From the IMG/VR virus record IMGVR_UViG_3300036398_002324: 64,000 nucleotides of DNA. One strand, 5' to 3'. The notes under the pieces are model-generated. The model was given only the letters and a program-made list of their open reading frames with translations, was not told where the DNA came from and did no database searches. Below, in pieces: positions 15,150-62,487 of this stretch (positions are counted from its first letter, which is position 1; each line of letters opens with the position of its first letter). Both the position numbers and the translations under genes were made by a program. The stretch is from a virus.

Positions 15150-16556
15150 ATGAAACTATTTAAAAAACTTTCTATTGTAGTTGCACTAGCCGCAGTAATT
15201 CCAGCATATGCTGATGAGTATAAGGACACATTGAATATTCTCAGAGAGAAAAATATTATTACTCAACAAGAGTATAATACTAAACTTAAAGCATATGAAG
15301 AGAAAGAAGAAAACAAAAAATTTGCAGAGCAAAGAATTGATAAAGATGTTAGTGATTCAGTCAAATACAGACAAGCAAGAGCAAATGACGGTTCAGTTAT
15401 GGAAAACGGAATCGGATTAAAATCAAAAGATGGTAACAATACCATTCAGCTTACAGGTCGAGTAAACATGGACTATCGTTACTATACACCAGACTATGGT
15501 ACAGGGCAGACCACAGATTCATATCAAAACTTAGCTGAAATTCGTCGTGCAAGATTTGGTGTGCGTGGTCAATTTCAAAAAGACTTCAAGTATGAAATAA
15601 TTGGTAACTTTGGTAATGATGTTGGTGCATCATCAACATCAACATTGATGGATGTGGCTTGGGTAAATTACGCAGCAAATCCTGAAATGCAGTTTCAGTT
15701 CGGTCTATTTAAAATGCCTTTCAGTCTTGAGCAGTTGACTAGTTCAAACAACATTGATTTTATGGAACGTAGTTTGATTGGTCAAGTTGAGGGTGAATTT
15801 ATTCCATCAAAAGAAACTGGATTCATGGTGCATGGTGTACCTAAAACTGGTTTGACTTATGCTGTTGCGTTGAGCCGTGGTCGTGCAAATAAAGATGCAA
15901 CAAATGATGGTTTTGATTACATTGGTCGTGTTACCACAAACATTGCTGAACTAACTGGCAGTAAAGAGTACACTGCTCACTTGGGTGCAGCATATAGTAT
16001 GGGTGATATTAAGGGTGGAGTAATTCCTGCAAGTGGTAGAACTGAGAGTAGATCTCAAAGTGCTTTCTTTACTGGCTCCGCATTGAGTGGTGACACTGTT
16101 AGAACACGCCAAGGTCTTGAAGCAGCATTTGCATACAAAAGTTTGAAACTACAGGGTGAGCAATTTAATTTCAAATATGACCCCACTACAGGTAACAATG
16201 TAGAAATTAAAGGTTACTATGTTCAAGCGATGTATAATTTAACAGGTGAATCTTATAATTATAAAGATGGTGTTTTTAGTGCAGTTAAACCAAACAACCC
16301 AACTGACAAGGGTGGTAAAGGTGCTTGGCAAGTTGGTGTACGTATGAGTGAGTTTGATGCTAGTGACATTACTGTTGCTACTGGTAAAACCAATCGTGCT
16401 ACTGCTATGACTTATGGACTAACTTGGTTTGCTACTGACAACCTACGTTTTATGTTAAACTATGTTGATACTAAATTTGATGCTTTAGTTGGTTCTTCGG
16501 GTAGTCGTGTAACTGGTGACAAAGCAATCATGTTTAGAAGTCAATTGAATTTCTAA
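15150..16556 (+). CDS. Phosphate-selective porin OprO/OprP family
   Basis: Signal peptide; RRARFG, PFSLEQLTSSNNIDFMERS; C-terminal Phe; follows pstS. Confidence 0.85.
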   Translation: MKLFKKLSIVVALAAVIPAYADEYKDTLNILREKNIITQQEYNTKLKAYEEKEENKKFAEQRIDKDVSDSVKYRQARANDGSVMENGIGLKSKDGNNTIQLTGRVNMDYRYYTPDYGTGQTTDSYQNLAEIRRARFGVRGQFQKDFKYEIIGNFGNDVGASSTSTLMDVAWVNYAANPEMQFQFGLFKMPFSLEQLTSSNNIDFMERSLIGQVEGEFIPSKETGFMVHGVPKTGLTYAVALSRGRANKDATNDGFDYIGRVTTNIAELTGSKEYTAHLGAAYSMGDIKGGVIPASGRTESRSQSAFFTGSALSGDTVRTRQGLEAAFAYKSLKLQGEQFNFKYDPTTGNNVEIKGYYVQAMYNLTGESYNYKDGVFSAVKPNNPTDKGGKGAWQVGVRMSEFDASDITVATGKTNRATAMTYGLTWFATDNLRFMLNYVDTKFDALVGSSGSRVTGDKAIMFRSQLNF

Positions 16557-32326: not shown

Positions 32327-33212
32327 TTATGCTAAAATGGTTTACTAAAGAAAATCTTCGTGCTGCCATCGGACTTACTTTTGCAGGTCTGATGGTTCTT
32401 TGTTTATTCTTGGGCCGAATTGATTTGAGTATCTTTGCAGTGCTGTTTTTGATTCTGATGGAAATTGAAAAGATGAATGGCAATAAATGAGTCCACATCT
32501 TGACAAAGAGTTGTGTGGGAAGTATACTAACATAATGGTCGAGCGGCACCTTGGTGCTATGCAAACATCTATGTGTTGGGGCTTCGACCACGGCGACGGC
32601 TGGTTTCATATCCTTGATACAGCTATGAAACTGGTGCAGTCACATATTGATATTACTCGGCGCCGTGGTCATGAGATTGAACAAGTTGTATTTGAGCAGG
32701 TCAAAGAGAAGTTTGGTATGCTGACGATATATCATCGTGGTGGTGATGAATATACAAGAGGCATTCTCCGCATGGCAGAAGAGATAAGCCGCTGCACTTG
32801 TGAAGAATGTGGCTCACCAGGAACTCCAACAAAGACCGGTTGGATTCGAACACTGTGTGATAAACACCATGAAGAGATGGGAAAATGATGGTTATTGTAA
32901 ATGCTTTTTTTGCAGTATTATTCTGGAACATGAGTGATGTTGCAAAAGAAGAAGACCGTTCGGGATGGGCGCTTGTGTATCTGATAGCATCGGCTGCAAA
33001 TGGTGCTGCCGTTCTTGCTAGTATTTTTTAAGGAGAAGTGAAATGAAAGAAATGATTTTTGCTGCTGTTGTGTTTTTGATGTTTTTGAGTTTGATGGTAT
33101 TTTCGATAATTTATAGTGATACCATTCGGATTGATTGTCGAGAGAAAGCAATGGAAAAAGGTATTTACTCATCGGCTGAAATTCAAGTTCTTTGTAGATA
33201 AAGGAGAAAACA

Positions 33213-33689
33213 ATGCCCAATTGGTGCGATAATTCACTGACACTTACTCATTCAGATAAATTGAAACTGGATGAATTAGAAGCGGAATTGCAAAAGAAAG
33301 AAGATGCTGAACTATTTTCACACTTTAGGTCAAACGGAGGAGAATGGGATTATGGTTGGTGTTTAGAGAATTGGGGCACCAAATGGGAAGCACGTATCAT
33401 CGATTGGGAACGTATCGATGAAACAACGATGTTTATTAGTTTCGAAACTGCATGGGGCCCACCAATTGCATTGTATGAATACATTGAACAAGAAGAGTGG
33501 TCAGTAGAAGGTCTGTATCATGAACCAGGCATGGCTTTTGTTGGCATGTACGAGCAGGGCTCAGACAATTATTTTGAGTATGGTGATTTATCTGCTGATG
33601 AAATTGAAGAAGAAATACCGGAAGTGTTAGAAGAAACATTTGGTATGGCACAATACAAGCGTGAATGGGAAGATGAGGAAGAAGAATGA
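33213..33689 (+). CDS. YubB/DUF1281-like ferredoxin-fold protein
   Basis: MPNWCDN, WCLENWGTKW, FETAWGPP, EPGM motifs. Confidence 0.65.
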   Translation: MPNWCDNSLTLTHSDKLKLDELEAELQKKEDAELFSHFRSNGGEWDYGWCLENWGTKWEARIIDWERIDETTMFISFETAWGPPIALYEYIEQEEWSVEGLYHEPGMAFVGMYEQGSDNYFEYGDLSADEIEEEIPEVLEETFGMAQYKREWEDEEEE

Positions 33690-33954
33690 AAGTAATGAAA
33701 CACGAATGGCATTCAGTAGATTCTCAATGGACATTTGAGATTACAGAAGACTTTATCGCAGAAGTTTATCCTGAGTTGGAAGAAGATGAAGTCAAACAAA
33801 AAATGGAAGCCCTTTCAAGTGGTGAAATAGAAGTATCGGAAATTATGAATGATGCATGGGATGTTGGTGTTGACATTGATTGGGACCATGAGTATGATGA
33901 TTGGTGGACATCACGAAAAGGCGGATATGAAGTCACCTATGAGTTGGAAGAAGA

Positions 33955-34338
33955 ATGAGTAATTACGGAATTCACTCAAATAGGTTTCAAGGAGATTATA
34001 AGCGTGTGCTGACAGTCTGTTCAGCTAACATGCTGCGGTCACCTACAATAGCACATGTGTTATCTGCGAATCCGTATAATTTTAATACAAGGTCAGCTGG
34101 TACAGAATCATATGCTTTGATTCCAGTCACCGAAGATTTGCTGATGTGGGCTGATGAAATTGTGTGTGCTGATACGGAACATGCAATGTGGGTACGCAAT
34201 AAAATGATGACCTGGATGTTAGATAAGCCAATCATCAATCTTGAAATTCCTGATAACTATGAGTATCGGAATCCTGAATTGATTAAGTTAATCAAGGAGC
34301 GTTATGCACAACGAACTATTAAACCATCTGGCACTTGA
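33955..34338 (+). CDS. Low-molecular-weight protein tyrosine phosphatase-like protein
   Basis: P-loop VCSANMLRS, SAGT, WADEI, IPD. Confidence 0.8.
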   Translation: MSNYGIHSNRFQGDYKRVLTVCSANMLRSPTIAHVLSANPYNFNTRSAGTESYALIPVTEDLLMWADEIVCADTEHAMWVRNKMMTWMLDKPIINLEIPDNYEYRNPELIKLIKERYAQRTIKPSGT

Positions 34339-34521
34339 AACTGGCGGGAGTCACTTTCCCGCCGTTTTTAAACAATATCAAAAAGACTACGTTTTGAATG
34401 TGTTGTCAGAAATATATCAAGTCTATGAAAAAGGTGAGAACAAGCCAGAAGATTATCTAGCACTGGACCTCTGGGATGATATTGTACGCCATTTCCAACT
34501 TGATAATTATGAAATTGATAA

Positions 34522-34577
34522 GTTGCTAAAAAACAACAAACAAACCGCTTGACAGAGTTCCGACCATTCTGTAGAAT
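34522..34577 (+). promoter_or_regulatory. sigma70 promoter with upstream GTTG-N8-CAAC palindrome
   Basis: GTTGctaaaaaaCAAC at 34522; TTGACA(34549)-17-TAGAAT. Confidence 0.65.
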
Positions 34578-35558
34578 TATACATGTTGATGATTATTACA
34601 GGAGTTTGTGATGGCTTACGTATCTCAAGAGTTGAAAGCAAAACTGGCACCAAAAATCAAGGCAATCTGCAAAAAGTATGGCGTGAAAGCCAGCCTTGCA
34701 GTTCGCCATCATTCGACCCTGGTGTTGAATGTAAAATCCGGTAAGATTGATTTTATCAATGACTACGGTGATACGCCAGAAACACGGGCTGATGCTGAGA
34801 AATTCGGCATTCAAGTGAATCCCTATCACTACAAAAGCCACTTCAATGGTGAAGCTTATCATTTTCTGAGTGAAGTGATTCCAGAAATGAATGCTGGTAA
34901 CTGGGATAAGTCTGATATTCAAAGTGATTATTTCAATGTTGGTTGGTACATTGACGTAAATATTGGTAAGTGGAACAAACCTTATACTCTGGAGGCTTAA
35001 TATGGATCAAATTGATAAAATTATGGCGTTTGAATCAGGTGAACTAGACTTTGATGCTACGGTAGAATTGTTTCAAGATTTGATTGATTCGGGTCTGGCG
35101 TGGCAATTGCAAGGTTCGTATGGTCGTATGGCAAATTCTCTGATTGAGAATGGTTATTGTGAGCGATAAAATGAGTGAGCCAAGAATCGTATCAAATCGA
35201 ATTCGTACTCCTGATGGTACGATTCTTGAATCCATGCATCGGCATGATTATGTAACTTATATTGATACAAATGGACTCGAATACATGGTTGATGGCGGCT
35301 TGGATTACCTGCGCCGTAATGTACATGATGAAGCACCCGCTGAAGAATTATCGGTATATTCCAGTGAATCGCACGATGTAATTCGTGAAGCATTCAAGTG
35401 GGGAACACGTGGCAAAGATGGTAGACAGCCTTTGACATATGTACCGCTGAAAGACTTGACAACAGACCACATTGTGGCTATACTTGAAACTCAAGATCAT
35501 ATTCAGCAATATATCAGAAATATTTTTTTGGATGAGATGATTTTTAGAACAAAAAATG

Positions 35559-35566
35559 TATAAATA
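35559..35566 (+). promoter_or_regulatory. T4 late promoter TATAAATA
   Basis: Perfect consensus 5 nt before the leader ATG. Confidence 0.75.
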
Positions 35567-35571
35567 AGATT

Positions 35572-35667
35572 ATGAACAAACATATACACAATACGAAGCC
35601 CTGCCAAGAGTATCGCACATTTAGCGATAATGGATCATGGGCGATTACGTTGGGAGTTTGTGTATAG
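35572..35667 (+). CDS. Putative attenuator leader peptide containing all 20 amino acids (MNKHIHNTKPCQEYRTFSDNGSWAITLGVCV)
   Basis: Manual translation; overlaps the antiterminator strand; precedes a terminator and the tRNA array. Confidence 0.7.
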   Translation: MNKHIHNTKPCQEYRTFSDNGSWAITLGVCV

Positions 35668-35694
35668 AAGTTAGTCTGTAGCATAAGATTACAC

Positions 35695-35729
35695 AAACCC
35701 CGAAGCCCAAAAAGTTTCGGGGTTTTTTT
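35695..35729 (+). terminator. Attenuator terminator hairpin
   Basis: AAACCCCGAAGC-loop-GTTTCGGGGTTT plus T-tract; 5' arm can alternatively pair with 35652-35664. Confidence 0.85.
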
Positions 35730-35731
35730 AT

Positions 35732-35805
35732 CTCGGTGTGGTGAAATGGTATCATGCGTGGTTTGGGACCATGCGGCGAAAGTTCGATTCTTTCCACCGA
35801 GACCA
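35732..35805 (+). tRNA. tRNA-Pro(TGG)
   Basis: Cloverleaf, CCA. Confidence 0.9.
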
Positions 35806-35814
35806 GAATAATGT

Positions 35815-35902
35815 GTTGTAAAACAACAACACAAAAATGCTTGACAGTTTGGCGAAATATCTTTATAATCGTTTCTGTTGAGTGATTGAAGTTCTTTAAA
35901 AA
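35815..35902 (+). promoter_or_regulatory. tRNA-operon sigma70 promoter with GTTG-N8-CAAC and a boxA-like element
   Basis: TTGACA(35841)-17-TATAAT; GTTCTTTAAAAA at 35891-35902. Confidence 0.7.
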
Positions 35903-36026
35903 GTGTGAATCAAAACAGGTGTGAGCGACCTGTCTCTGAAAAGAGTTGAGCAAGGGTTTGATGCAGTAATGACTTCGGCATCATGTAATAGTCTGTTCCT
36001 TGTTAGTTTGCGAATTTTAGTTTTAT

Positions 36027-36102
36027 GCACCGTTCGTCTATCTGGTTAGGACAACGCCCTTTCAAGGCGTAAAGACGGGTTCGAATCCCGTACGGTGTAC
36101 CA
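36027..36102 (+). tRNA. tRNA-Glu(TTC)
   Basis: Cloverleaf, CCA. Confidence 0.92.
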
Positions 36103-36154
36103 AACTTTTAAAAAGGAGAGTCCACATGGACAGTGACAAGAGTAGTAAGATGAA

Positions 36155-36230
36155 GGGGCTATAGTCAAACGGTTAAGACAGCGGACTTTTAATCCGTCAG
36201 GTCAGGGTTCGAATCCCTGTGGCCCCACCA
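36155..36230 (+). tRNA. tRNA-Lys(TTT)
   Basis: Cloverleaf, CCA. Confidence 0.92.
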
Positions 36231-36316
36231 TATAAAAACACATTCAAACACATGATGACGCCCGGGGTTATGGAATGTTTTACGACACTCCAAGAATGTG
36301 TTTCTATATGGTTTGT

Positions 36317-36390
36317 TGGGATATAGTGTAATGGCAGCACCGCAGACTTTGACTCTGTTAGTCTAGGTTCAAATCCTAGTATCCCTGCCA
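36317..36390 (+). tRNA. tRNA-Gln(TTG)
   Basis: Cloverleaf, CCA. Confidence 0.9.
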
Positions 36391-36399
36391 AAATATTAT

Positions 36400-36477
36400 G
36401 GCACTTTAGCATAGCTGGCCTAATGCGCTGCCCTGTCACGGCAGAGATCACGGGTTCGAATCCCGTAAGTGTCGCCA
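36400..36477 (+). tRNA. tRNA-Asp(GTC)
   Basis: Cloverleaf, CCA. Confidence 0.92.
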
Positions 36478-36486
36478 AAGTTTTAT

Positions 36487-36561
36487 TGCTCGGTAGCACA
36501 GCGGTAGTGCAGTTGACTGTTAATCAATTTGTCGTTGGTTCGATCCCAACCCGAGCAGCCA
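36487..36561 (+). tRNA. tRNA-Asn(GTT)
   Basis: Cloverleaf, CCA. Confidence 0.92.
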
Positions 36562-36562
36562 A

Positions 36563-36756
36563 GTTCCGGTTTCTACTTACCTGAAAGTAGCGGGTGTCAC
36601 ACGTTAGTTAGACCGGTTGGCTAGGCTACCGTTAGCGCAATGCAGAGCAGAGCACCTAGATATCCGGACACAACCGGTAGCACGATACGCTGAAACAAAT
36701 GTGGACAGGGTAAAAACTCAGCATAGGGGCGATGACTGGAAATCACGTAGCCTAAG
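36563..36756 (+). ncRNA. Candidate pseudoknotted ncRNA within the tRNA array
   Basis: Several complementary segments (ACCGGTTG/CAACCGGT, TAGGCTAC/GTAGCCTA, TTCCGGTT/GACTGGAA); no ORF. Confidence 0.55.
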
Positions 36757-36758
36757 CA

Positions 36759-36888
36759 ATATTAGTTTTGCAGTTTGTAAGCCATGGGCTTGATCATGCC
36801 TGAGTAACTATGTCTATAAACGGTAAAGAAAGTCCTGCAGGCTACTCCGTTGAAACATAGCAAATAGTGCAGACTGCAAAACTAATAT
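36759..36888 (+). ncRNA. Candidate ncRNA closed by a 21-bp stem
   Basis: ATATTAGTTTTGCAGTTTGTA pairs with TGCAGACTGCAAAACTAATAT (two G.U pairs). Confidence 0.5.
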
Positions 36889-36973
36889 GGGTTGGAAGCA
36901 TCAATGGTGATGCAGTGGACTGTAAATCCGCCGTCTTCGGGCACGACTGGTTCGATCCCAGTACAACCCACCA
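36889..36973 (+). tRNA. tRNA-Tyr(GTA)
   Basis: Cloverleaf with variable arm, CCA. Confidence 0.9.
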
Positions 36974-36979
36974 TATTTT

Positions 36980-37054
36980 CGGTCTTTAGTAAAATGGATA
37001 TTACGGATGGCTACGGACCATCAAGTGGGAGTTCGATTCTCTCAGGACCGGCCA
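36980..37054 (+). tRNA. tRNA-Arg(ACG)
   Basis: Cloverleaf, CCA. Confidence 0.88.
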
Positions 37055-37055
37055 A

Positions 37056-37130
37056 GGGGGATTGGTATAGTTGGGAACACATCAGATTTGCATTCTGAAG
37101 TAATCGGTTCGAATCCGATATCCTCCACCA
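37056..37130 (+). tRNA. tRNA-Ala(TGC)
   Basis: G3.U70 identity pair, CCA. Confidence 0.9.
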
Positions 37131-37137
37131 TAGTTTT

Positions 37138-37211
37138 GCCCGTTTAGTTAAATGGTATAACAGTTGATTTGTAATCATCTATTGGCAGTTCGATTCTGTC
37201 AACGGGCACCA
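37138..37211 (+). tRNA. tRNA-Thr(TGT)
   Basis: Cloverleaf, CCA. Confidence 0.9.
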
Positions 37212-37229
37212 ATATTATAGTTAAACATT

Positions 37230-37856
37230 ATGATTAAATTTAATGTAACTCCTATTTTTCCTAGACCGTTCGCTGAATACACGGTTGATGAAAATATGGA
37301 TAATTTTTTTGAAGTCGTTAAAAATTTGAAGTATATTTCTCACAAGAATACATACTCAAATATTGAAACGACAGAAGATAAACACATATTAGATTCGTTG
37401 CCTGAAGTAAAAGAAATCTTTAAAAAGTATTTCTATCATTTCAAAAATGAGTTTTTGCATTTTAATGATATAGAGTTTGACATTACCACTTCATGGGCAA
37501 CTAAAACACAAAAAGGTGGTTTTAGCGCATCACACGCACATTACAATAGTTTTTATTCTGGCGTGTATTATTTTGAATCGATGCCCGAAGAGGGTGCTGA
37601 TGTTATTTTTGAGCGGCCTGAAGAAGTAAGTTCATTTCTTATTCAGCCCAATGAAATAGTAAATGATGTGACAACGAATTTTTGTTTTTATAAACCTGTT
37701 AAAAATACTTTGATATTTTTTCCAAGTTTTCTAAAACATAGAGTAGCGTTACATGAAATTGATGACATTCGGTATTCGTTGGCATTCAATGTTATTCCTG
37801 TTGGAAAATTTGGGTTTCAAGATTCAACTTTGAATGTGCGACTTAATAAGAATTAA
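37230..37856 (+). CDS. Putative 2OG-Fe(II) oxygenase
   Basis: HAHYNSFYSGVYY, FFPSFLKH, RYSLAFN motifs. Confidence 0.75.
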   Translation: MIKFNVTPIFPRPFAEYTVDENMDNFFEVVKNLKYISHKNTYSNIETTEDKHILDSLPEVKEIFKKYFYHFKNEFLHFNDIEFDITTSWATKTQKGGFSASHAHYNSFYSGVYYFESMPEEGADVIFERPEEVSSFLIQPNEIVNDVTTNFCFYKPVKNTLIFFPSFLKHRVALHEIDDIRYSLAFNVIPVGKFGFQDSTLNVRLNKN

Positions 37857-37862
37857 ATTTAT

Positions 37863-37939
37863 AGCGGATTAGGGAAGTGGTCGTTCCCGCCGGTCTCATA
37901 AGCCGGAGGTCGCAGGTTCGAATCCTGCATCCGCAACCA
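37863..37939 (+). tRNA. tRNA-Met(CAT), initiator-like
   Basis: 1:72 mismatch, CAT anticodon, CCA. Confidence 0.85.
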
Positions 37940-37961
37940 GTTTTTTATTTACGGGTGAAAC

Positions 37962-38429
37962 ATGAAAAAAGAAATTGACATACATGAAGTGGCTGCATTT
38001 CTTGACACATGCGGTCCCGATACGAAAGTTTACATTGGTGCAGACAGTGAACGTTTTCAAATAAATGGTGAATGGTTTGCTGATTATATTCTAGCGGTTG
38101 TTGTTCATATCGATGGTCGGCACGGTTGCAAGATTTTTGGTTGTGTTCAGCGTGAACGTGATTACGAACAAAAGAAAAATCGCCCACGTATGCGTTTGAT
38201 GACAGAAGTTTATAAAGTTTCGGAATTGTATTTAAAACTTTATGATGCAATACCACATGATATTGAAGTGCATTTAGATATTAATCCAAGTGAGATGCAC
38301 GGCAGTTCATGTGTAGTAAACGAAGCAATTGGTTATATCAAAGGTACATGTAATGTTGTACCGCTTGTGAAACCAAAAGCTTTTGCAGCAAGTTATGCGG
38401 CAGATAGATTTAAAAGTATTGCTGCTTAA
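37962..38429 (+). CDS. RNase H-fold protein (YkuK/DUF458-like)
   Basis: YIGADS, RLMTE, EVHLDIN, AASYAAD motifs. Confidence 0.7.
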   Translation: MKKEIDIHEVAAFLDTCGPDTKVYIGADSERFQINGEWFADYILAVVVHIDGRHGCKIFGCVQRERDYEQKKNRPRMRLMTEVYKVSELYLKLYDAIPHDIEVHLDINPSEMHGSSCVVNEAIGYIKGTCNVVPLVKPKAFAASYAADRFKSIAA

Positions 38430-38433
38430 AAAT

Positions 38434-38507
38434 CTCGGTGTGATGTAATGGTAGCATCGCAGTCTCCAAAACTGTTCGTTGCGGTTCAAGTCCGTACACC
38501 GAGGCCA
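38434..38507 (+). tRNA. tRNA-Trp(CCA)
   Basis: Cloverleaf, CCA. Confidence 0.9.
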
Positions 38508-38509
38508 GT

Positions 38510-38585
38510 GGTGTCTATAGTGTAGTGGTCTGCACGAATGTCTGTGGAACATTCAGTATGAGTTCAATCCTCATTAGACACCCCA
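38510..38585 (+). tRNA. tRNA-His(GTG)
   Basis: G-1:C73, CCA. Confidence 0.9.
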
Positions 38586-38587
38586 AT

Positions 38588-38663
38588 GGTGCTTTAGCTG
38601 ATGTGGTCATAGCGGCGGTTTGAAGAGCCGTTGAAGTTGGTTCGATTCCAACAGGCACCACCA
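38588..38663 (+). tRNA. tRNA-Phe(GAA)
   Basis: Cloverleaf, CCA; G37. Confidence 0.88.
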
Positions 38664-38664
38664 T

Positions 38665-38738
38665 TGTCCTGTAGTTAAATGGTATAACTGTCGATTGATA
38701 ATCGACCATTACAAGTTCAATTCTTGTCGGGACAACCA
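38665..38738 (+). tRNA. tRNA-Ile(GAT)
   Basis: Cloverleaf, CCA. Confidence 0.9.
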
Positions 38739-38739
38739 A

Positions 38740-38814
38740 GGTAATGTAGCATAACGGTAGTGCGCCTCCTTCATACGGAGTCAAGTGTAAGTTCGATTCT
38801 TACCATTACCACCA
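38740..38814 (+). tRNA. tRNA-Met(CAT), elongator-like
   Basis: Cloverleaf, CCA. Confidence 0.82.
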
Positions 38815-38816
38815 AT

Positions 38817-38893
38817 GCCCCTTTGACGGAACTGGTATACGTGTATGTCTTAGGAACATAATTTTGAGGGTTCGAATCCCTTGGGGGGCACCA
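38817..38893 (+). tRNA. tRNA-Leu(TAG), short variable loop
   Basis: Cloverleaf, A73, CCA. Confidence 0.85.
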
Positions 38894-38901
38894 AATTAAA
38901 C

Positions 38902-38976
38902 GCATCGTTAGTTCAGCGGTAGAATCCCTGCCTTACAAGCAGGTTGTCGTTGGTTCGAATCCAGCACGATGCACCA
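38902..38976 (+). tRNA. tRNA-Val(TAC)
   Basis: Cloverleaf, CCA. Confidence 0.92.
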
Positions 38977-38982
38977 AACAAC

Positions 38983-39060
38983 GGTAAGGTGGCTGAGTGG
39001 TCCAAAGCAACAGTCTGCAAAACTGTAAAACCATCGGTTCAAATCCGATCCTTACCTCCA
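38983..39060 (+). tRNA. tRNA-Cys(GCA)
   Basis: U73, CCA. Confidence 0.92.
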
Positions 39061-39064
39061 GAAT

Positions 39065-39154
39065 GGAAACGTGGCCGAGTGGTTTAAGGCTCTAGTCTTG
39101 AAAACTAGCGATTCAGAAATGGATCCGTGAGTTCGAATCTCACCGTTTCCGCCA
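39065..39154 (+). tRNA. tRNA-Ser(TGA)
   Basis: Long variable arm, CCA. Confidence 0.92.
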
Positions 39155-39159
39155 AACAT

Positions 39160-39246
39160 GGAGAGTTGGCAGAGTGGTAATGCACCGGATTGCTAATCCG
39201 CCGTTTCGAAAGAGGCGCACAGGTTCGAATCCTGTACTCTCCGCCA
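39160..39246 (+). tRNA. tRNA-Ser(GCT)
   Basis: Long variable arm, CCA. Confidence 0.92.
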
Positions 39247-39876
39247 TTTTTGGTAATGAAAATCGAAAATATTGACAAAAATCACTTTTTCAGTCATAAT
39301 CACTACTATCATGAATACGAAAAAATCAAAAATTTCTTCAAAACCACGAAATTTTGTCGCTAAGGATCTCTTTTCGGCAAAATATCGCATGAAAGTTGAG
39401 AAATCACCCGCAGTATTTTATTCACGTGCAGTCGAAAAACAAAATTTTAGGAAAAATTATGACGGATTCTAGTAAAAACGAAGAAAATGATGATATTACT
39501 GAAAATTATGACGGTTTTTACTTTATTCCAACAGAGACTAAAGATGAATCAAGCTACAAATTAGCATTTTTCACGTTTAAAGATGAAATGGCAAATGCAA
39601 AACCGATAGAAACGTCTGAAATGGGCGATACATTTCATATTGCATTCTTCAAACCCGATGAAAATGACCTTCCTGTGTTCGATGATTCGTTTGAAGCTAT
39701 TTTGACTGACCCAATCGTGTATATTAACAATTTAGTTGGCACTGGTATGTCTGGCTGCATACTCAGAAAGACTGAAAAATCGGAAGTTTGGTTTCAAGAG
39801 TATTTGGATTATATAACTGGCGGCGAATTTGAAACAAAAGTTCGTGAAATTGCAAAAAATATAGCGGAGAACTAAT

Positions 39877-40173
39877 ATGAATGTATTTTCTGGTGATAGT
39901 GATGATGCAAAAGCAGGTCGTGATTGGCTAAAAAGTTTGTTAGAAGAAAACACGGTAGAAGTTGTGTTTACTAAAAAAGATGGCACTGAACGTGTGATGA
40001 ATTGTACATTGAAAGAAGATGTTCTGCCAACAGTACAAAAAGAAATTGAAGAAGATTCATTCACAAAGACAAAAGCAAAAGATGCACTTGCTGTTTGGGA
40101 TGTTGACGCAAGTGGTTGGCGTTCTTTTCGTTGGGACTCAATCAAGTCTGTTAATTTTTCATTGGGAGCATAA
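39877..40173 (+). CDS. SH3/WYL-like phage protein
   Basis: FTKKDGTERVMNCTL...VWDVD..GWRSFRWD. Confidence 0.65.
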   Translation: MNVFSGDSDDAKAGRDWLKSLLEENTVEVVFTKKDGTERVMNCTLKEDVLPTVQKEIEEDSFTKTKAKDALAVWDVDASGWRSFRWDSIKSVNFSLGA

Positions 40174-40472
40174 TTATGCCTAAGTATATCGTAGAACAGT
40201 TGTCTTGTTTTAGAAATGTTCATGTTGTTGAAGCAGAAACCGAACAAGAAGCAATTGCAATCTCAGAACAAGCCGATGATAACTGGCAAGAATGGCTTGG
40301 TTGTCTGAAAGTTGACGTAAATCATTTTTCCGATGAACGTATTGCATATTTTAAAGAAAAAGATTATTTTTGGAATGGCGTATCATACAAAGATGCTGAT
40401 GGCTATATCGGATATATACATCCGAGCGGTGAAAAAGTAGAACGTAAAGAAATTAAGATTAAATGAAGCAAT

Positions 40473-40546
40473 GCGGGATTAGTTTAATGGTAAAACGTGA
40501 GCCTTCCAAGCTCCTGTTATCAGTTCGATTCTGATATCCCGCTCCA
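40473..40546 (+). tRNA. tRNA-Gly(TCC)
   Basis: Cloverleaf, U73, CCA. Confidence 0.92.
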
Positions 40547-40556
40547 AAGGACAATT

Positions 40557-40760
40557 ATGGAACCATCAAAGCACTGGACGCTAGAAGTACAACAACATGA
40601 AGATGGAGATTACTTCATTGAATTTCCTGATGATGTTCTTGCTGAAGCTAATTGGAAAGAAGGCGATGTGATTGAATGGATTGATAATAAAGATGGTTCT
40701 TGGACATTGCGTAAAAAATTAGATGATAATCATGAAAATACTGATGAATCTAAAGAGTAA
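40557..40760 (+). CDS. AbrB/MazE-like swapped-hairpin protein
   Basis: IEFPDDVLAEANWKEGDVIEW motif; true start lies after tRNA-Gly. Confidence 0.55.
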   Translation: MEPSKHWTLEVQQHEDGDYFIEFPDDVLAEANWKEGDVIEWIDNKDGSWTLRKKLDDNHENTDESKE

Positions 40761-40802
40761 ATATGTTTAAATAAACGTGTTGTTATTTTTATAGGAGTTG
40801 TT

Positions 40803-41237
40803 ATGAGTTTGAAAGGCACAAAAACCGCAGAGTGTTTGAAAGAAGCTTTTGCGGGTGAATCTATGGCAAATCGTCGCTATCTGTATTTTGCAAATCAGTG
40901 CGATATTTCAGGTGAGAATGATTTGGCTGCATTGTTCCGTTCTACTGCTGAAGGTGAAACAGGACATGCACACGGTCACATGGAATATTTAATTGAAGGC
41001 GGTGCTGGCGAACCCGGTACAGACTTGCCGGCGAAAACTGCAAAAGAAATGCTAGAAGCTGCTGTTCATGGCGAAACGCATGAATATTCAGATATGTATC
41101 CTGGCATGGCGAAAATTGCACGTGATGAAGGTTTTGATGAAGTTGCTGATTGGTTTGAAACTTTGGCGAAAGCTGAACGTTCTCACGCTAATCGTTATCA
41201 AAAAGCGTTGGATAAACATATTGCAGAAAATTCTTAA
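40803..41237 (+). CDS. Rubrerythrin
   Basis: [32 protein letters not shown] diiron motifs. Confidence 0.92.
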
Positions 41238-41247
41238 GGAGAAAACT

Positions 41248-41322
41248 ATGAACTGGACTACACCTGCGGCACAAGATATGCGTTTTGGTTTTGAAATCAC
41301 AATGTACATCGCTAATCGTTAA
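41248..41322 (+). CDS. pqqA: Pyrroloquinoline quinone precursor peptide
   Basis: MNWTTPAAQDMRFGFEITMYIANR; W..P, GFE and E-X3-Y motifs; SD AGGAGA. Confidence 0.92.
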   Translation: MNWTTPAAQDMRFGFEITMYIANR

Positions 41323-41332
41323 TCAGTAAAAT

Positions 41333-41357
41333 AAAAGCGGCTTAGGCCGCTTTTTTT
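41333..41357. terminator. Bidirectional intrinsic terminator
   Basis: AAAAGCGGC-TTAG-GCCGCTTTTTTT between convergent genes. Confidence 0.8.
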
Positions 41358-41529
41358 CTTTCCCTATAAGCTTTTATTCTATAGTCTGCATCGTGTTTCA
41401 TATTCTTCAATGCAGCATTTGTTATCATGGCAAAATGATTGCTGCGTGTGACAAGAATTAGAGTATTATCTTCATTTGTATAAACAAAGTAAAATAATTC
41501 TCCATCAATAACTTGAATTTTCAACATTC

Positions 41530-42300
41530 TTATTTCGGCTCACAATCAACCCATTTTAAGTTATTATATTGCTCATAACCCCAAGTTCCTTTTGGTATCA
41601 AACATGTTCCAAGTTCTGGTCTTTCAGCTTTTCTTATCTCAACGATACTCCACACTAAGGCAATAAAATAAAGAATTGAAAATGTTATAAGACTCCAACG
41701 AACAATTCTTTTTCTTAAATACGCCAATCTTCTTGCTCTTGTTGCTGCCGCTTTTTTATCTTTTTCTTTTTTAATTGTTATTGCAACCGATTGCTCATAC
41801 TTAATGCGTTCCATCATTTTTTCGGTACGAGTGTATAAATCACCTAATTCTGTCGGACATTGGTACACCATAATTTCACGAAGTTCTGCTTTCATTGCAT
41901 CAAGGCGACTTATCATCAAAACACGTTGTAATGCTCTTTTACCTAAACTCATTTCACCTGTGTAAACATCAAATGCATGTTTTTCTTCTTCTTCAAAGAT
42001 TGCCATACATTTCGCATAGTTTTCAAAATAAGTTCCTAGTTCTTCTCCTATTTGTGTGAATACATCATCTGGCTGCTTTTTGCTAAGTTCAATAATTCTA
42101 TTTTTTTCTTCAATAAATTGATTCTTCTCTGCAACTGTTGGAGCTTTATCTTTAAACTTTGCATGAAACTGTTCATCAAGGTCCGATAGAATTCCTTTAA
42201 CATCACCTGCGGCTGATGCTATCTCTTTATAAAGGGCACATCCCTGCTTAACGGCTGCAACTGCACCGTTTGCCAGAGCAAAGAGTGTTATCGGATCCAT
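41530..42300 (-). CDS. Hypothetical coiled-coil protein with C-terminal TM
   Basis: 256 aa ORF, MDPITLFA start; minus-strand island. Confidence 0.6.
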   Translation of the reverse strand: MDPITLFALANGAVAAVKQGCALYKEIASAAGDVKGILSDLDEQFHAKFKDKAPTVAEKNQFIEEKNRIIELSKKQPDDVFTQIGEELGTYFENYAKCMAIFEEEEKHAFDVYTGEMSLGKRALQRVLMISRLDAMKAELREIMVYQCPTELGDLYTRTEKMMERIKYEQSVAITIKKEKDKKAAATRARRLAYLRKRIVRWSLITFSILYFIALVWSIVEIRKAERPELGTCLIPKGTWGYEQYNNLKWVDCEPK

Positions 42301-52445: not shown

Positions 52446-52609
52446 TTATGGAAATTAGTGAAAAAGAATACGATGAAAAATTGGATGAATATCTGAGAGA
52501 ACAAGGACCAAATCTAGGTGAAACATTTTTTGGCGCATGGGGTTGGTATGCAACAAAACGAAATGAGTTTAATGCGATATTGAAAGAGGAAGGAATTGTT
52601 GTAATCCCT

Positions 52610-52890
52610 TCAAAGTGAAGGCATTCTGGACGAGGGTTCGATTCCCTCCATCTCCACCAGAAACATTCTTGTCCATGGAGTTGGGAACGGACAGATAAAC
52701 CGTGAGAGTGTTTCTCATGGGGATGACCTGGTTTCGACAGGGTGAGATAGCAGAGAAGGCAACACGAAAGGCGACGGACGTAATCCGAGCAAATAATATA
52801 ACCGCAAATGACGAGTTATACGCTCTAGCAGCCTAAATTGCTAGATGAGGTTTCGCCGACTGTCCTTATTATCCAATCAGTCGGCATCAA
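52610..52890 (+). ncRNA. ssrA: Circularly permuted (two-piece) tmRNA, tag ANDELYALAA
   Basis: T-arm/CCA piece ends 52659 upstream of the GGGGATG 5' piece at 52719 (G3.U70); tag at 52804-52836; outer ends approximate. Confidence 0.88.
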
Positions 52891-52955
52891 TTATGGGTTT
52901 GGTGGCATCACCCGAACAAGAGTTCAAAAAACCACCACTTACACGGAGTTATATT

Positions 52956-60222: not shown

Positions 60223-62487
60223 TTATGATTTTCTCATTCTGGATAAAAGATTTTCATCATGTACAGATGGTGTTTTTTCGTCCATAGCAACGTTGTCTGT
60301 TGTACTTACATTTTTAGATGCATCAGCAAAAATTGGAGTTGAAAATGCTTCCAAGAAACTTTTATCTCTTAGAAGTGCTTGAAGTTCAGTAGATGCTAAC
60401 CCAAGTTTTCCTCCAGTAGCTTTATCTAAATCTGTTAATCCAGTTGATAAAGCACCTACCAATGTGCTTATCGCACTTCCTCCATCAGTTTTATTCTCTG
60501 TGTCCGATGAGGGTGACGATTTTGGCTCTTGAGGCTGCATTGAAGGCGAAGCCATATCAGGAGCTGTTGCTGCTGCGGCTTGTGTTGGTATAGATTTGCT
60601 TGGTCTCTGTTCGTTTGGCGTGGAAGAAGCTACTGTTGTGGGTGAGCCACCAGTCAATAGGGGATCATAACCCCTAAAAATATCTGCACGTAAATCTGCA
60701 TGTTTAGCATGATGTTTACTTTCTACCATCACACCATTTTTTTGATATGTTCTTGCTTTCTGCTGAATTATCTGTGCTGCTTTATTCATATCGCCCGATT
60801 TGATTGCATCAGCAAGGTCTTTTGTAATTAAGCCTGGACCCCCAGCAAAACTTAAATCCATTAATGCATATTGTTGCATAGGATTCAGACCACTCCAAAC
60901 ATCTTGACCAGCAAGTTTGTTTATCTGTCTTTTTGCTCCATTTGCGTGATTCATTACATCCTGAATGTACAAGTCTTTGACTTGTTGTTCAGTTAAAGGT
61001 GTGTTTCTGTCTGCTTTAACGAATCTACCACCAATAAACACACCACCTTTGTCTTGTTCTTCTTTACTTAACTTGTGTCCTATGCCAATTGTATCTGTTC
61101 CACCTTCTGGACTAGCGTAAGCCAATGTTCTGAAACCTTCACGTTTCTTTTTACGCTCAAATTCCATGCCAATATATTCTTCAAGTGATTTGGGCATACC
61201 CGCAGGATTTTGATTCACTGGTCGTGACGGTGTTGGTGATGGACTCGGTGATGGACTCGGTGATGGTGCCGGTGAGGGCGATGGTCCGGGTGATGGACTT
61301 GGTGATGGACTTGGTGAAGGTCCTGGACCAGTTGGTCTGTCTGTTCTGTCTGGCGTCATTGCGTCATATGCAGTATAAGCAACACCCGCAACTACGCCTA
61401 GACCCATAAGCTTATCTACTCTGGAGTATCCTGATTTTTTACCGGGTACATTACCACCTTTTCCGCCACCACCGCCACCGCCACCGCCACCTAAACCAGC
61501 GGCTTTCATGCCCGCTCCCTGCAATGAACCAATAAAAAATTGCATAGCACCTTGAAGCACAGCAGTTGCTACTGCTAATCCAATGAGTGCTTGCTTTAGA
61601 GTGACTTTTCCACCTTCCCATTCAAATATGGGCATGTTCATCACTTCACCGATGAAATTCAGAATAGCGTTTACAATGTATTGGAACTGTTTTTTAACTT
61701 CTTCGTTGCTCACAATATTTTGACCAATTTTTAAAGCGCCAACGATTACGTCTTTAATGACCAAGAATACGCTTATAGCACCTTCTTTTAGTGCATCGGA
61801 GTTTTCTGATAGAAGATTTTTGGTTACACTGTATGCAGCTTTAATAGCATTTGCAATTCCACTGATAATTGCTACAATAACACCACTAATTGTTTGTTGA
61901 TTTTCAGGATCACTTACAAACTTACTGAAGAAGTTTGCGCCAGAAACAATAGCATCACCAATAAATTTAAAAACAGATTTTGCTACATTAAAAATTGAAT
62001 TTATAACTTCTTGGTCATTTAATATATTTCGAATGAAAGACATCCCTTTTTGAAGAACATCTGATATATTGATGATTAATTTTTTAGTCAAATCTGTTAT
62101 GGTACCCATAACATCAGACATATTCAGAAGCTTTGAGATTCCTATTGATGCTAATCCAACCAAAGCAAACTTGAAGATACCAGAAAGAACATCTTTTATC
62201 ATTTCCAAAAAAGATTTTTTATCTTCTTTGACTATATTTTTTTCAACTTTTGTTGGACCCTTTTTATATTTTGCAGCATAATCATCGGCTCTCTGTCTTT
62301 GACGAGCGACCGCACTGGCTTTCTTCTCATCTTCAAAAAGTTTGGTAAGTTTTAAGACACTTATTTTTAATAAAGAAACGTCTTTTGCAAGTGTCTCAAG
62401 TGTCTTTTCAGTTTTTACTTTAAAAGATGGATTATTGGGATCTGTAATAAATTTTCCGGTTTTTGGATCTCTTAATTGATTTGCCAT
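60223..62487 (-). CDS. Tape-measure/hub-like tail protein with lysozyme (GH24-like) domain
   Basis: EGFR..AY....TIGIGH motif; (PS)n and poly-Gly linkers. Confidence 0.7.
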   Translation of the reverse strand: MANQLRDPKTGKFITDPNNPSFKVKTEKTLETLAKDVSLLKISVLKLTKLFEDEKKASAVARQRQRADDYAAKYKKGPTKVEKNIVKEDKKSFLEMIKDVLSGIFKFALVGLASIGISKLLNMSDVMGTITDLTKKLIINISDVLQKGMSFIRNILNDQEVINSIFNVAKSVFKFIGDAIVSGANFFSKFVSDPENQQTISGVIVAIISGIANAIKAAYSVTKNLLSENSDALKEGAISVFLVIKDVIVGALKIGQNIVSNEEVKKQFQYIVNAILNFIGEVMNMPIFEWEGGKVTLKQALIGLAVATAVLQGAMQFFIGSLQGAGMKAAGLGGGGGGGGGGKGGNVPGKKSGYSRVDKLMGLGVVAGVAYTAYDAMTPDRTDRPTGPGPSPSPSPSPSPGPSPSPAPSPSPSPSPSPTPSRPVNQNPAGMPKSLEEYIGMEFERKKKREGFRTLAYASPEGGTDTIGIGHKLSKEEQDKGGVFIGGRFVKADRNTPLTEQQVKDLYIQDVMNHANGAKRQINKLAGQDVWSGLNPMQQYALMDLSFAGGPGLITKDLADAIKSGDMNKAAQIIQQKARTYQKNGVMVESKHHAKHADLRADIFRGYDPLLTGGSPTTVASSTPNEQRPSKSIPTQAAAATAPDMASPSMQPQEPKSSPSSDTENKTDGGSAISTLVGALSTGLTDLDKATGGKLGLASTELQALLRDKSFLEAFSTPIFADASKNVSTTDNVAMDEKTPSVHDENLLSRMRKS

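Follow-up and report, generated by a model that had tools for sequence, protein, structure and literature searches.

A candidate transcription attenuator with an all-amino-acid leader peptide at the head of a phage tRNA array

Introduction

Control of transfer RNA (tRNA) genes is known at the promoter, where growth rate and guanosine tetraphosphate (ppGpp) act, and at the level of processing. Leader-peptide attenuators such as those of the enterobacterial trp and his operons usually carry a cluster of regulatory codons within a short open reading frame (ORF), and in mycobacteria leaderless polycysteine short ORFs serve as cysteine-responsive attenuators (bioRxiv 10.1101/834739). A full-text literature search returned no published leader peptide that controls tRNA genes, nor a leader that contains all amino acids. 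Here we describe an element in a 64,000-nucleotide stretch of viral DNA (IMG/VR record IMGVR_UViG_3300036398_002324, hereafter the window) in which a 31-codon ORF encoding all 20 amino acids lies between a promoter-like box and an intrinsic terminator, immediately ahead of an array of tRNA genes. The stretch recurs across many lake-water metagenomes and its source is a lake-water T4-like phage. A first-pass annotation, made from the sequence alone, had read the element as an attenuator of the trp/his type, and our comparative data lend support to this architecture: an ORF, a terminator and an antiterminator that overlaps the stop codon recur at the heads of tRNA arrays in lineages whose sequences are unrelated. 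On this basis, we think that the element is probably a ribosome-mediated transcription attenuator heading a phage tRNA operon.

Results

An all-amino-acid leader ORF is followed by three alternative helices

The element begins where a DUF7695 gene (35144-35563; Pfam PF24749) ends. A TATAAATA box on the + strand overlaps the TAA stop codon of this gene and is separated by 5 nt from the ATG of the leader ORF at position 35572. The parts of the element, in order, are:

35559..35566, + strand: TATAAATA box, a -10-like or T4-late-type promoter element; relatives carry TATAAATA or TATATATA at the same spacing
35572..35667, + strand: leader ORF of 31 codons and a TAG stop; its translation contains all 20 amino acids, encoded by 28 different codons, and it has close and diverged counterparts
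35583..35591, + strand: strand 1 (codons 4-7), the partner of strand 2 and putative anti-antiterminator
35611..35629, + strand: inner hairpin of 6 bp inside the ORF, nucleotide-invariant among close relatives (99.5% paired, zero variation)
35652..35666, + strand: strand 2, the last five codons plus the first two bases of the stop codon, predicted from pairing and folding to pair with strand 1 or strand 3
35690..35701, + strand: strand 3, the putative 3' half of the antiterminator, overlapping the first 7 nt of the terminator 5' arm
35695..35729, + strand: intrinsic terminator with a 12-bp stem, a 7-nt loop and a run of seven T residues

Helix 1:2 joins 35583-91 to 35658-66 (-8.2 kcal/mol), helix 2:3 joins 35652-64 to 35690-701 around one bulged A (-15.4 kcal/mol), and the terminator stem spans 35695-35725 with 12 pairs (-17.2 kcal/mol), its seven-T run ending at 35729. 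The box, the ORF with its 20 residue types and 28 codon types, the three helices, the terminator and the position of tRNA-Pro all lie where the first-pass annotation had placed them. The 160-nt region that holds the element is more stable than 200 of 200 shuffled versions (z = -4.2), and its minimum free energy (MFE) structure contains helix 1:2 and the terminator. Apart from the tRNA genes, Rfam covariance models run over 33000-42000 gave sub-threshold matches only (E up to 1), none of them on the element.

Such residue diversity is rare by chance. Given the composition of the window's long ORFs, a 31-residue peptide starting with Met is expected to hold 15.3 residue types on average (standard deviation 1.4), and the probability that all 20 occur in 31 codons is 4e-4; stop-free mononucleotide shuffles of the ORF itself give 9e-4. 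The leader is the sole ORF with 20 types among the 131 window ORFs of 29-40 codons in six frames, and its counterpart in a complete relative of 169,777 bp (G001) is likewise the sole such ORF among 338 of that length.

We folded the element with a ribosome modelled as a 28-nt mask positioned by its A-site codon, using for the nascent RNA the transcript without the 3' arm of the terminator and treating all structures as being at equilibrium. The MFE structure of the nascent RNA contains helix 2:3 when there is no ribosome or when the mask stands at codons 2-24 (13-14 pairs, falling to 9 at codon 24), and the helix is lost when the mask stands at any of the last seven codons (25-31) or at the stop codon. 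In the full RNA, the structure that combines the terminator with helix 1:2 (-45.1 kcal/mol) is favoured by about 3 kcal/mol over the antiterminator form (-42.2 kcal/mol), and the antiterminator form becomes the MFE structure once strand 1 is masked (codons 3-4). In this model the energetics of the switch are finely balanced, and the folds suggest that stalls at codons 2-24 favour read-through. The first-pass annotation had cautioned that the Ala, Leu and Val codons may lie too close to strand 2 for a stall there to antiterminate; the masked folds bear this out for Leu and Val and clear Ala24.

The leader ORF is kept in close relatives

Through the upstream gene and exact sequence patterns we retrieved 31 distinct close variants of the element from IMG/VR and metagenome contigs (family A). 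The reading frame is intact in all 31, and the indels that separate them, of 3 or 6 nt, are all in frame. Twenty residue types are present in 21 of 33 close variants and 17-19 in the remainder. In every related locus with enough sequence the element stands directly before the tRNA array, with zero tRNA genes upstream of it. What follows the terminator in family A is tRNA-Pro in most cases, while some members have a sigma70 promoter first and one type is without tRNA-Pro at this place. Distant relatives of the DUF7695 gene (loci L007-L014) are followed by other genes, the element being absent at that position, and a DNA search of cultured phages matched the tRNA genes alone and returned no close cultured relative.

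Variation within family A is unevenly spread over the leader. Codons 14-20 and 22-23 (within 35611-35640 of the window) are nucleotide-invariant across the 31 distinct sequences, codons 4-5, 10-13 and 25-28 vary freely at all three positions, and ten residues of the peptide are invariant. The inner hairpin at 35611-35629 shows no variation at all, and a role as a pause hairpin is one possibility for it. Of the alternative helices, the terminator is paired in 97.6% of alignment cells and has three pairs with compensatory changes, helix 1:2 is paired in 84% with one compensatory pair (AU 27, GC 3, GU 1), and helix 2:3 is paired in 87%, also with one (UA 17, CG 3, UG 3). The lineage comprising L039, L043 and L044 carries a matching change in strands 1, 2 and 3 together. 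Taken alone, this covariation is evidence of modest weight.

Amino-acid diversity accompanies the architecture in lineages that cannot be aligned

More diverged elements were reached with a pattern on strands 2 and 3 and by a tRNA search in G001. The leaders of L062/L067 (38 codons, 20 types), L065 (31 codons, 18 types) and L066 (31 codons, 19 types) share little peptide similarity with the window leader. That of G001 (loci L056/L090) has 32 codons and 20 types and, as in the window, TATAAATA stands 5 nt ahead of its ATG. The layout is also kept in L108, L112, L137 and many other loci, whose peptides cannot be aligned to that of the window.

We scanned for the architecture, with amino-acid composition ignored, in 158 further loci, which were located by the RNase H-like gene within the array (37962-38429 in the window) and come from phage contigs that mostly measure 130-345 kb. 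The scan called for an ATG-initiated ORF of 20-55 codons, a tRNA gene no more than 700 nt downstream, a terminator starting between 6 nt before and 75 nt after the end of the stop codon, and a duplex of the last 24 nt of the ORF plus 3 nt with the 5' flank and arm of the terminator. It yielded 48 distinct ORFs, 45 of which remained after filtering and fell into 17 clusters at 50% identity. These leaders lie at the tRNA-array head with an intrinsic terminator 15-40 nt past the stop codon, and their last codons and stop codon pair with the terminator 5' flank and arm. Although composition played no part in their selection, 36 of the 45 contain 20 residue types, five contain 19, three contain 18 and one contains 17, and 13 of the 17 clusters have an all-20 representative. 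Before filtering, all 20 types occur in 37 of the 48 ORFs.

Against a pool of 2,415 unique small ORFs of 28-55 codons from the scanned loci, at least 19 types were found in 42 of 48 architecture-positive ORFs compared to 128 of the 2,367 others (5%), with an odds ratio of 122 and a Fisher p of 2e-44, a value that overstates independence because the compared ORFs are related by descent. Some of the all-20 ORFs counted among the others are themselves further leaders that fell narrowly below a threshold (L109, L124, L133/L141, L143, L157 and L162). In these sequence comparisons the direction of the association is unambiguous across lineages without alignable similarity. Cys is present in 93% of leaders, where 34% would be expected, and Trp in 96%, where 45% would be expected; within the largest superfamily, the positions of Cys, His and Tyr change from member to member. 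Because the peptides are often unalignable and these residues relocate, it appears to be the amino-acid composition of the leader, rather than its sequence, that is selected, and the data support selection on amino-acid diversity. The cluster of regulatory codons that is usual in leader-peptide attenuators was not found, as these leaders have no codon runs: each cluster representative has 5-12 residue types that appear a single time, and its commonest residue appears 2-7 times.

The pairing geometry was also examined in terminator-adjacent ORFs chosen by diversity alone (at least 19 types, n = 49) and in 36 low-diversity ORFs. The best partner of the terminator 5' flank is the stop-codon window in 32 of the 49 high-diversity ORFs and lies no more than three codons from the ORF end in 46, whereas in the low-diversity set the best-pairing position is scattered. 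In folds of shortened RNAs from most lineages, strand 2 coincides with the final 15-20 nt of the ORF, antiterminator-type duplexes of -15 to -29 kcal/mol occur in unrelated lineages, and a strand 1 within codons 2-12 is seen in families A and E, in L165 and in L195. Overall, the element is present in 54 of 75 related loci with a visible array head.

Promoter spacing points to a leaderless transcript

In 30 of the 45 leaders, 6-7 nt separate the end of the best -10 hexamer from the ATG. Many of these leaders also have a TTGACA-like -35 at a distance of 17 nt, with several promoters being perfect matches to the consensus TTGACA-17-TATAAT, and in 43 of the 45 no Shine-Dalgarno-like motif was found. 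Because of this spacing and the missing Shine-Dalgarno motif, the messenger RNA (mRNA) would start at the AUG itself, in agreement with the earlier suggestion that the transcript is leaderless; in the window, the data support a start at or next to the A of the ATG at 35572. Family A and G001 have a TATA(A/T)ATA box without a -35 in place of the sigma70 promoter.

This box had been described as a perfect late promoter. The sequence TATAAATA and its place 5 nt before the ATG stand, whereas late promoter is a putative label in the window, where TATAAATA occurs as a single copy on the + strand; a late-promoter regulon inside the window accordingly has no support. The same geometry, a TATAAATA-type box followed by 5 nt and an ATG, is common to the window, G001 and Xanthomonas phage X1. 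G001 encodes homologues of T4 gp55 (44% identity, E = 1.5e-21) and gp45 (E = 9e-18) as well as of gp44, gp46 and gp47, and neither a gp55 nor a gp45 homologue is located within the 64-kb window. By homology with G001, it is plausible that the TATAAATA box of the window is a gp55-dependent late promoter. The + strand of G001 has 5 copies of TATAAATA and 24 of ATAAATA, the latter occurring 5 times on the - strand; about 14 ATAAATA copies lie no more than 45 nt from an ORF start, and in four cases an ATG follows 4-7 nt later. Near 60449, 66829 and 106959 of G001 (loci L068-L076), ATAAATA stands 4-7 nt ahead of the ATG of larger ORFs, and leaderless late mRNAs may be common in this phage group.

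A second promoter bypasses the switch in the window

Downstream of the terminator, the window contains:

35732..35805, + strand: tRNA-Pro(TGG); no other tRNA gene separates the terminator from the next promoter (ARAGORN and Rfam); its transcription from the leader would need read-through
35841..35869, + strand: consensus sigma70 promoter TTGACA-17-TATAAT (12 of 12 matches), before tRNA-Glu; predicted to drive the remainder of the array and to bypass the attenuator
36027..40546, + strand: tRNA array of 20 ARAGORN tRNA genes and one tRNA-like match, with few interspersed ORFs (ARAGORN, Rfam)

ARAGORN finds 24 tRNAs and one transfer-messenger RNA (tmRNA) in the whole window. Because the perfect sigma70 promoter at 35841-35869 sits downstream of the switch, the switch of the window cannot control early expression of the array, and its predicted reach is tRNA-Pro together with late or read-through transcription arriving from upstream. 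No second promoter was seen between the terminator and the first tRNA gene in L108, L112 and G001, where the entire array appears to be gated by the element.

Contigs from RNA libraries of two studies run continuously from the leader through the terminator into the tRNA-Pro of a relative; this is weak evidence, as their depth is 2-4 and DNA carry-over is possible, and such contigs cannot reveal starts, ends or regulation.

Within the array, a tRNA-like Rfam match at 36889-36970 (+ strand, 34 bits) was missed by ARAGORN and is probably the missing tRNA-Tyr, since in relatives a tRNA-Tyr gene separates those for Gln and Arg(ACG). In L108 (about 600-680) and L112 (about 760-840), the boxA-like words GTTCTTTAAAAA and GTTCTTTAACAA occur past the terminator and ahead of the first tRNA gene. 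Four other loci have long, strongly structured non-coding stretches located between the leader or promoter and the first tRNA gene (L133 2220-2550, L141 1670-2000, L145 540-860 and L126 1100-1420), with MFE values of about -80 to -88 kcal/mol over 250 nt.

Cultured phages and other genes of the window

Among cultured phages, the element appears to be present in one, Xanthomonas phage X1 (OQ427096.1). Its ORF (L236:6551-6670) has 39 codons and 19 residue types, CATAAATA and 5 nt precede the ATG, and a terminator is present, with a duplex of -22.9 kcal/mol. The array regions of Stenotrophomonas phage DLP6, Pseudomonas phage Astolliot and Rhizobium phage RHph_I1_18 showed no convincing element. 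In Vibrio phage KVP40, an unannotated ORF of 37 codons with 19 types (L240 3319-3432; about 178800-178920 of the record, on the strand opposite the annotated KVP40.0315) is followed by a terminator and lies upstream of tRNA-Pro-2. Judged by its ORF and terminator, it may be a distant member.

Elsewhere in the window, all on the + strand, are the phage tmRNA gene at 52567-52927 (tag peptide ANDELYALAA by ARAGORN), a 468-amino-acid ORF at 15150-16556 of the phosphate-selective porin O/P family (PF07396, E = 1.4e-53), which places an outer-membrane porin gene in a phage, and a 603-amino-acid ORF at 1116-2927 with an internal HicA toxin domain (PF07927, residues 166-217).

Discussion

A mechanism for the element can be proposed from its layout. 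With a transcript that starts at or next to the leader ATG, a ribosome would load once the 5' end emerges from the polymerase. Strand 2, comprising the last five codons and the stop, would be able to pair with strand 3, which overlaps the 5' arm of the terminator. A fast lead ribosome would be occupying the final codons or the stop as strands 3 and 4 are being transcribed, masking strand 2, so that the terminator would form and transcription would end at about 35729; a ribosome lagging within codons 2-24 would instead allow helix 2:3 to pair and the polymerase to continue into tRNA-Pro and the array. As each amino acid is represented about once in the leader, tRNA transcription would increase whichever of them was decoded slowly, which would give negative feedback on the phage's own tRNA supply.

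The sequence anatomy of the element, its conservation, the selection on amino-acid diversity and the promoter geometry are observed here. Several points weigh against reading them as this attenuator. By equilibrium folding, stalls at Leu27, Val29 and Val31, the only residues outside the sensing zone, should not antiterminate. Some leaders, with 17-19 types, are without one to three amino acids, and a comparison of the residues absent from leaders with the tRNAs absent from complete arrays showed no co-absence; the sole case in which Cys and His are missing from both leader and array is L137, whose array is possibly cut. Composition alone explains neither the nucleotide-invariant core of family A nor the several residues that a large superfamily of leaders (HLPL..GW..R) conserves with synonymous codon changes, and a consistent strand 1 was not found in lineages beyond families A and E, L165 and L195. 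In the window, the sigma70 promoter that follows the switch means that most array transcription may be independent of it, and one RNA-library contig, at a depth of 2-4, begins at 35536, upstream of the presumed start. It also counts against the proposal that ORF translation, the position of the transcript start, the end at 35729 and stall-dependent read-through are steps we infer.

An attenuator with the same architecture could instead sense the overall coupling of transcription and translation, through ribosome availability, leaderless initiation or elongation rate, in which case the even composition would avoid dependence on any single amino acid rather than report the shortage of a single tRNA. 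With each residue present about once, the signal from one codon would be small compared to that of the his or phe leaders with their codon runs, and leaderless initiation is itself condition-dependent. Nonetheless, a complete residue set is unnecessary for pure coupling, and the relocation of Cys, His and Tyr together with the presence of Cys and Trp in 93-96% of leaders argues for selection for each residue, such that we regard this explanation as unlikely. It is also conceivable, and in our judgement quite unlikely, that the ORF is the gene of a functional micro-protein, equipped with a promoter and a terminator of its own, the helices being incidental and the place before the array a matter of gene order only. 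The residues of the HLPL..GW..R superfamily that survive synonymous codon changes, the ten invariant residues of family A and the separate consensus promoter of the window array would all fit such a protein. What it does not account for is that the peptides of different lineages are unalignable and yet keep 19-20 residue types with the rare residues relocated, that the stop codon always falls within the strand pairing with the terminator flank, and that no other array promoter was seen in L108, L112 and G001; in addition, a tblastn search with the L108 leader peptide against cultured phages gave no match.

The family A core bears on a further explanation, in which the product of termination, about 155 nt long, acts in trans as a small RNA or has a dual function, and the ORF and switch are secondary. 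The invariant hairpin and loop at 35611-35629 cannot be explained by coding alone, the unit has its own promoter-like box and terminator, and there is precedent in rnTrpL, a small RNA derived from an attenuator (PMC6614838). This invariant core is, however, specific to family A, whereas the layout of ORF, terminator and antiterminator is general, and Rfam has zero family matches on the element; moreover, a small RNA would be compatible with an attenuator and does not exclude one. As an explanation of the element as a whole we find it very unlikely. Lastly, a plain terminator could insulate the upstream operon from the tRNA operon, the ORF being a chance frame. The upstream gene ending at 35563 does need a terminator, and the terminator wins in the naked full-length RNA, but this view is scarcely credible in the light of the comparative data, which already contradict it: the ORF persists in 31 variants, whose indels are in frame, and across 17 clusters, the association between diversity and architecture has p = 2e-44 among ORFs related by descent, and the promoter is positioned on the ATG.

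If the element is an attenuator, what appears new is leader-peptide attenuation that targets tRNA genes and senses all amino acids, and an all-20 leader would be the first multivalent attenuator to read the whole decoding capacity of a cell. Such a leader would account for the way in which phages that have complete tRNA sets dose these tRNAs, and it provides a testable link to host defences that target tRNA. A wider idea, which we put forward as a doubtful possibility, is that large T4-like phages carry a general decoding self-test, a leaderless mini-gene with all 20 amino acids whose slow translation from any cause, among them tRNA cleavage by host anticodon nucleases and phage-induced loss of host tRNAs, switches on a complete replacement set of tRNAs. 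If true, the element would serve to sense host defences and counter them, and would represent a new class of tRNA-gene feedback control. Experiments are feasible because the cultured Xanthomonas phage X1 appears to carry the element, and because the family is large and diverse, the comparative data already define its essential features.

Comparison with known regulatory systems

The enterobacterial leaders (trpL, hisL, pheL, leuL, thrL and the multivalent ilvGMEDA leader) resemble the phage element in having a short ORF, an intrinsic terminator and an overlapping antiterminator whose 5' strand a ribosome covers on reaching the leader's end; the putative 1:2 anti-antiterminator would be a further likeness in family A. 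They differ in their codon runs, where the phage leader has every amino acid about once, and in controlling biosynthetic enzymes, where the genes downstream here are those of tRNAs. The phage element is furthermore phage-encoded and its mRNA is apparently leaderless. In this last respect it is like the mycobacterial polycysteine ORFs, in which a regulatory ORF at the 5' AUG of a leaderless transcript controls downstream operon genes; their Cys runs make these ORFs responsive to a single amino acid, and the protein genes under their control are Cys-related (10.1101/834739). The phage leader differs from them in its full set of 20 residues, its intrinsic terminator switch and the tRNA genes downstream.

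T-box riboswitches also convert the state of the tRNA pool into a choice between terminator and antiterminator. They do so by binding one uncharged tRNA directly and without translation, they control aminoacyl-tRNA synthetase and amino-acid genes, and no T-box match was found by Rfam in 33000-42000. The boxA-like words before the first tRNA gene in L108 and L112 recall the rrn-type boxA leaders of rRNA and tRNA operons; boxA works through Nus factors on untranslated RNA and would be an additional layer, separate from the attenuator. Like the pyrBI leader (pyrL), the phage element has a leader ORF that ends near the terminator and an outcome that would be set by the closeness of the lead ribosome to the polymerase. 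In pyrBI, a close ribosome blocks the terminator itself and the result is read-through, whereas in the phage element close coupling would lead to termination, because about 28 nt separate the stop codon from the terminator stem and the ribosome there would mask the antiterminator.

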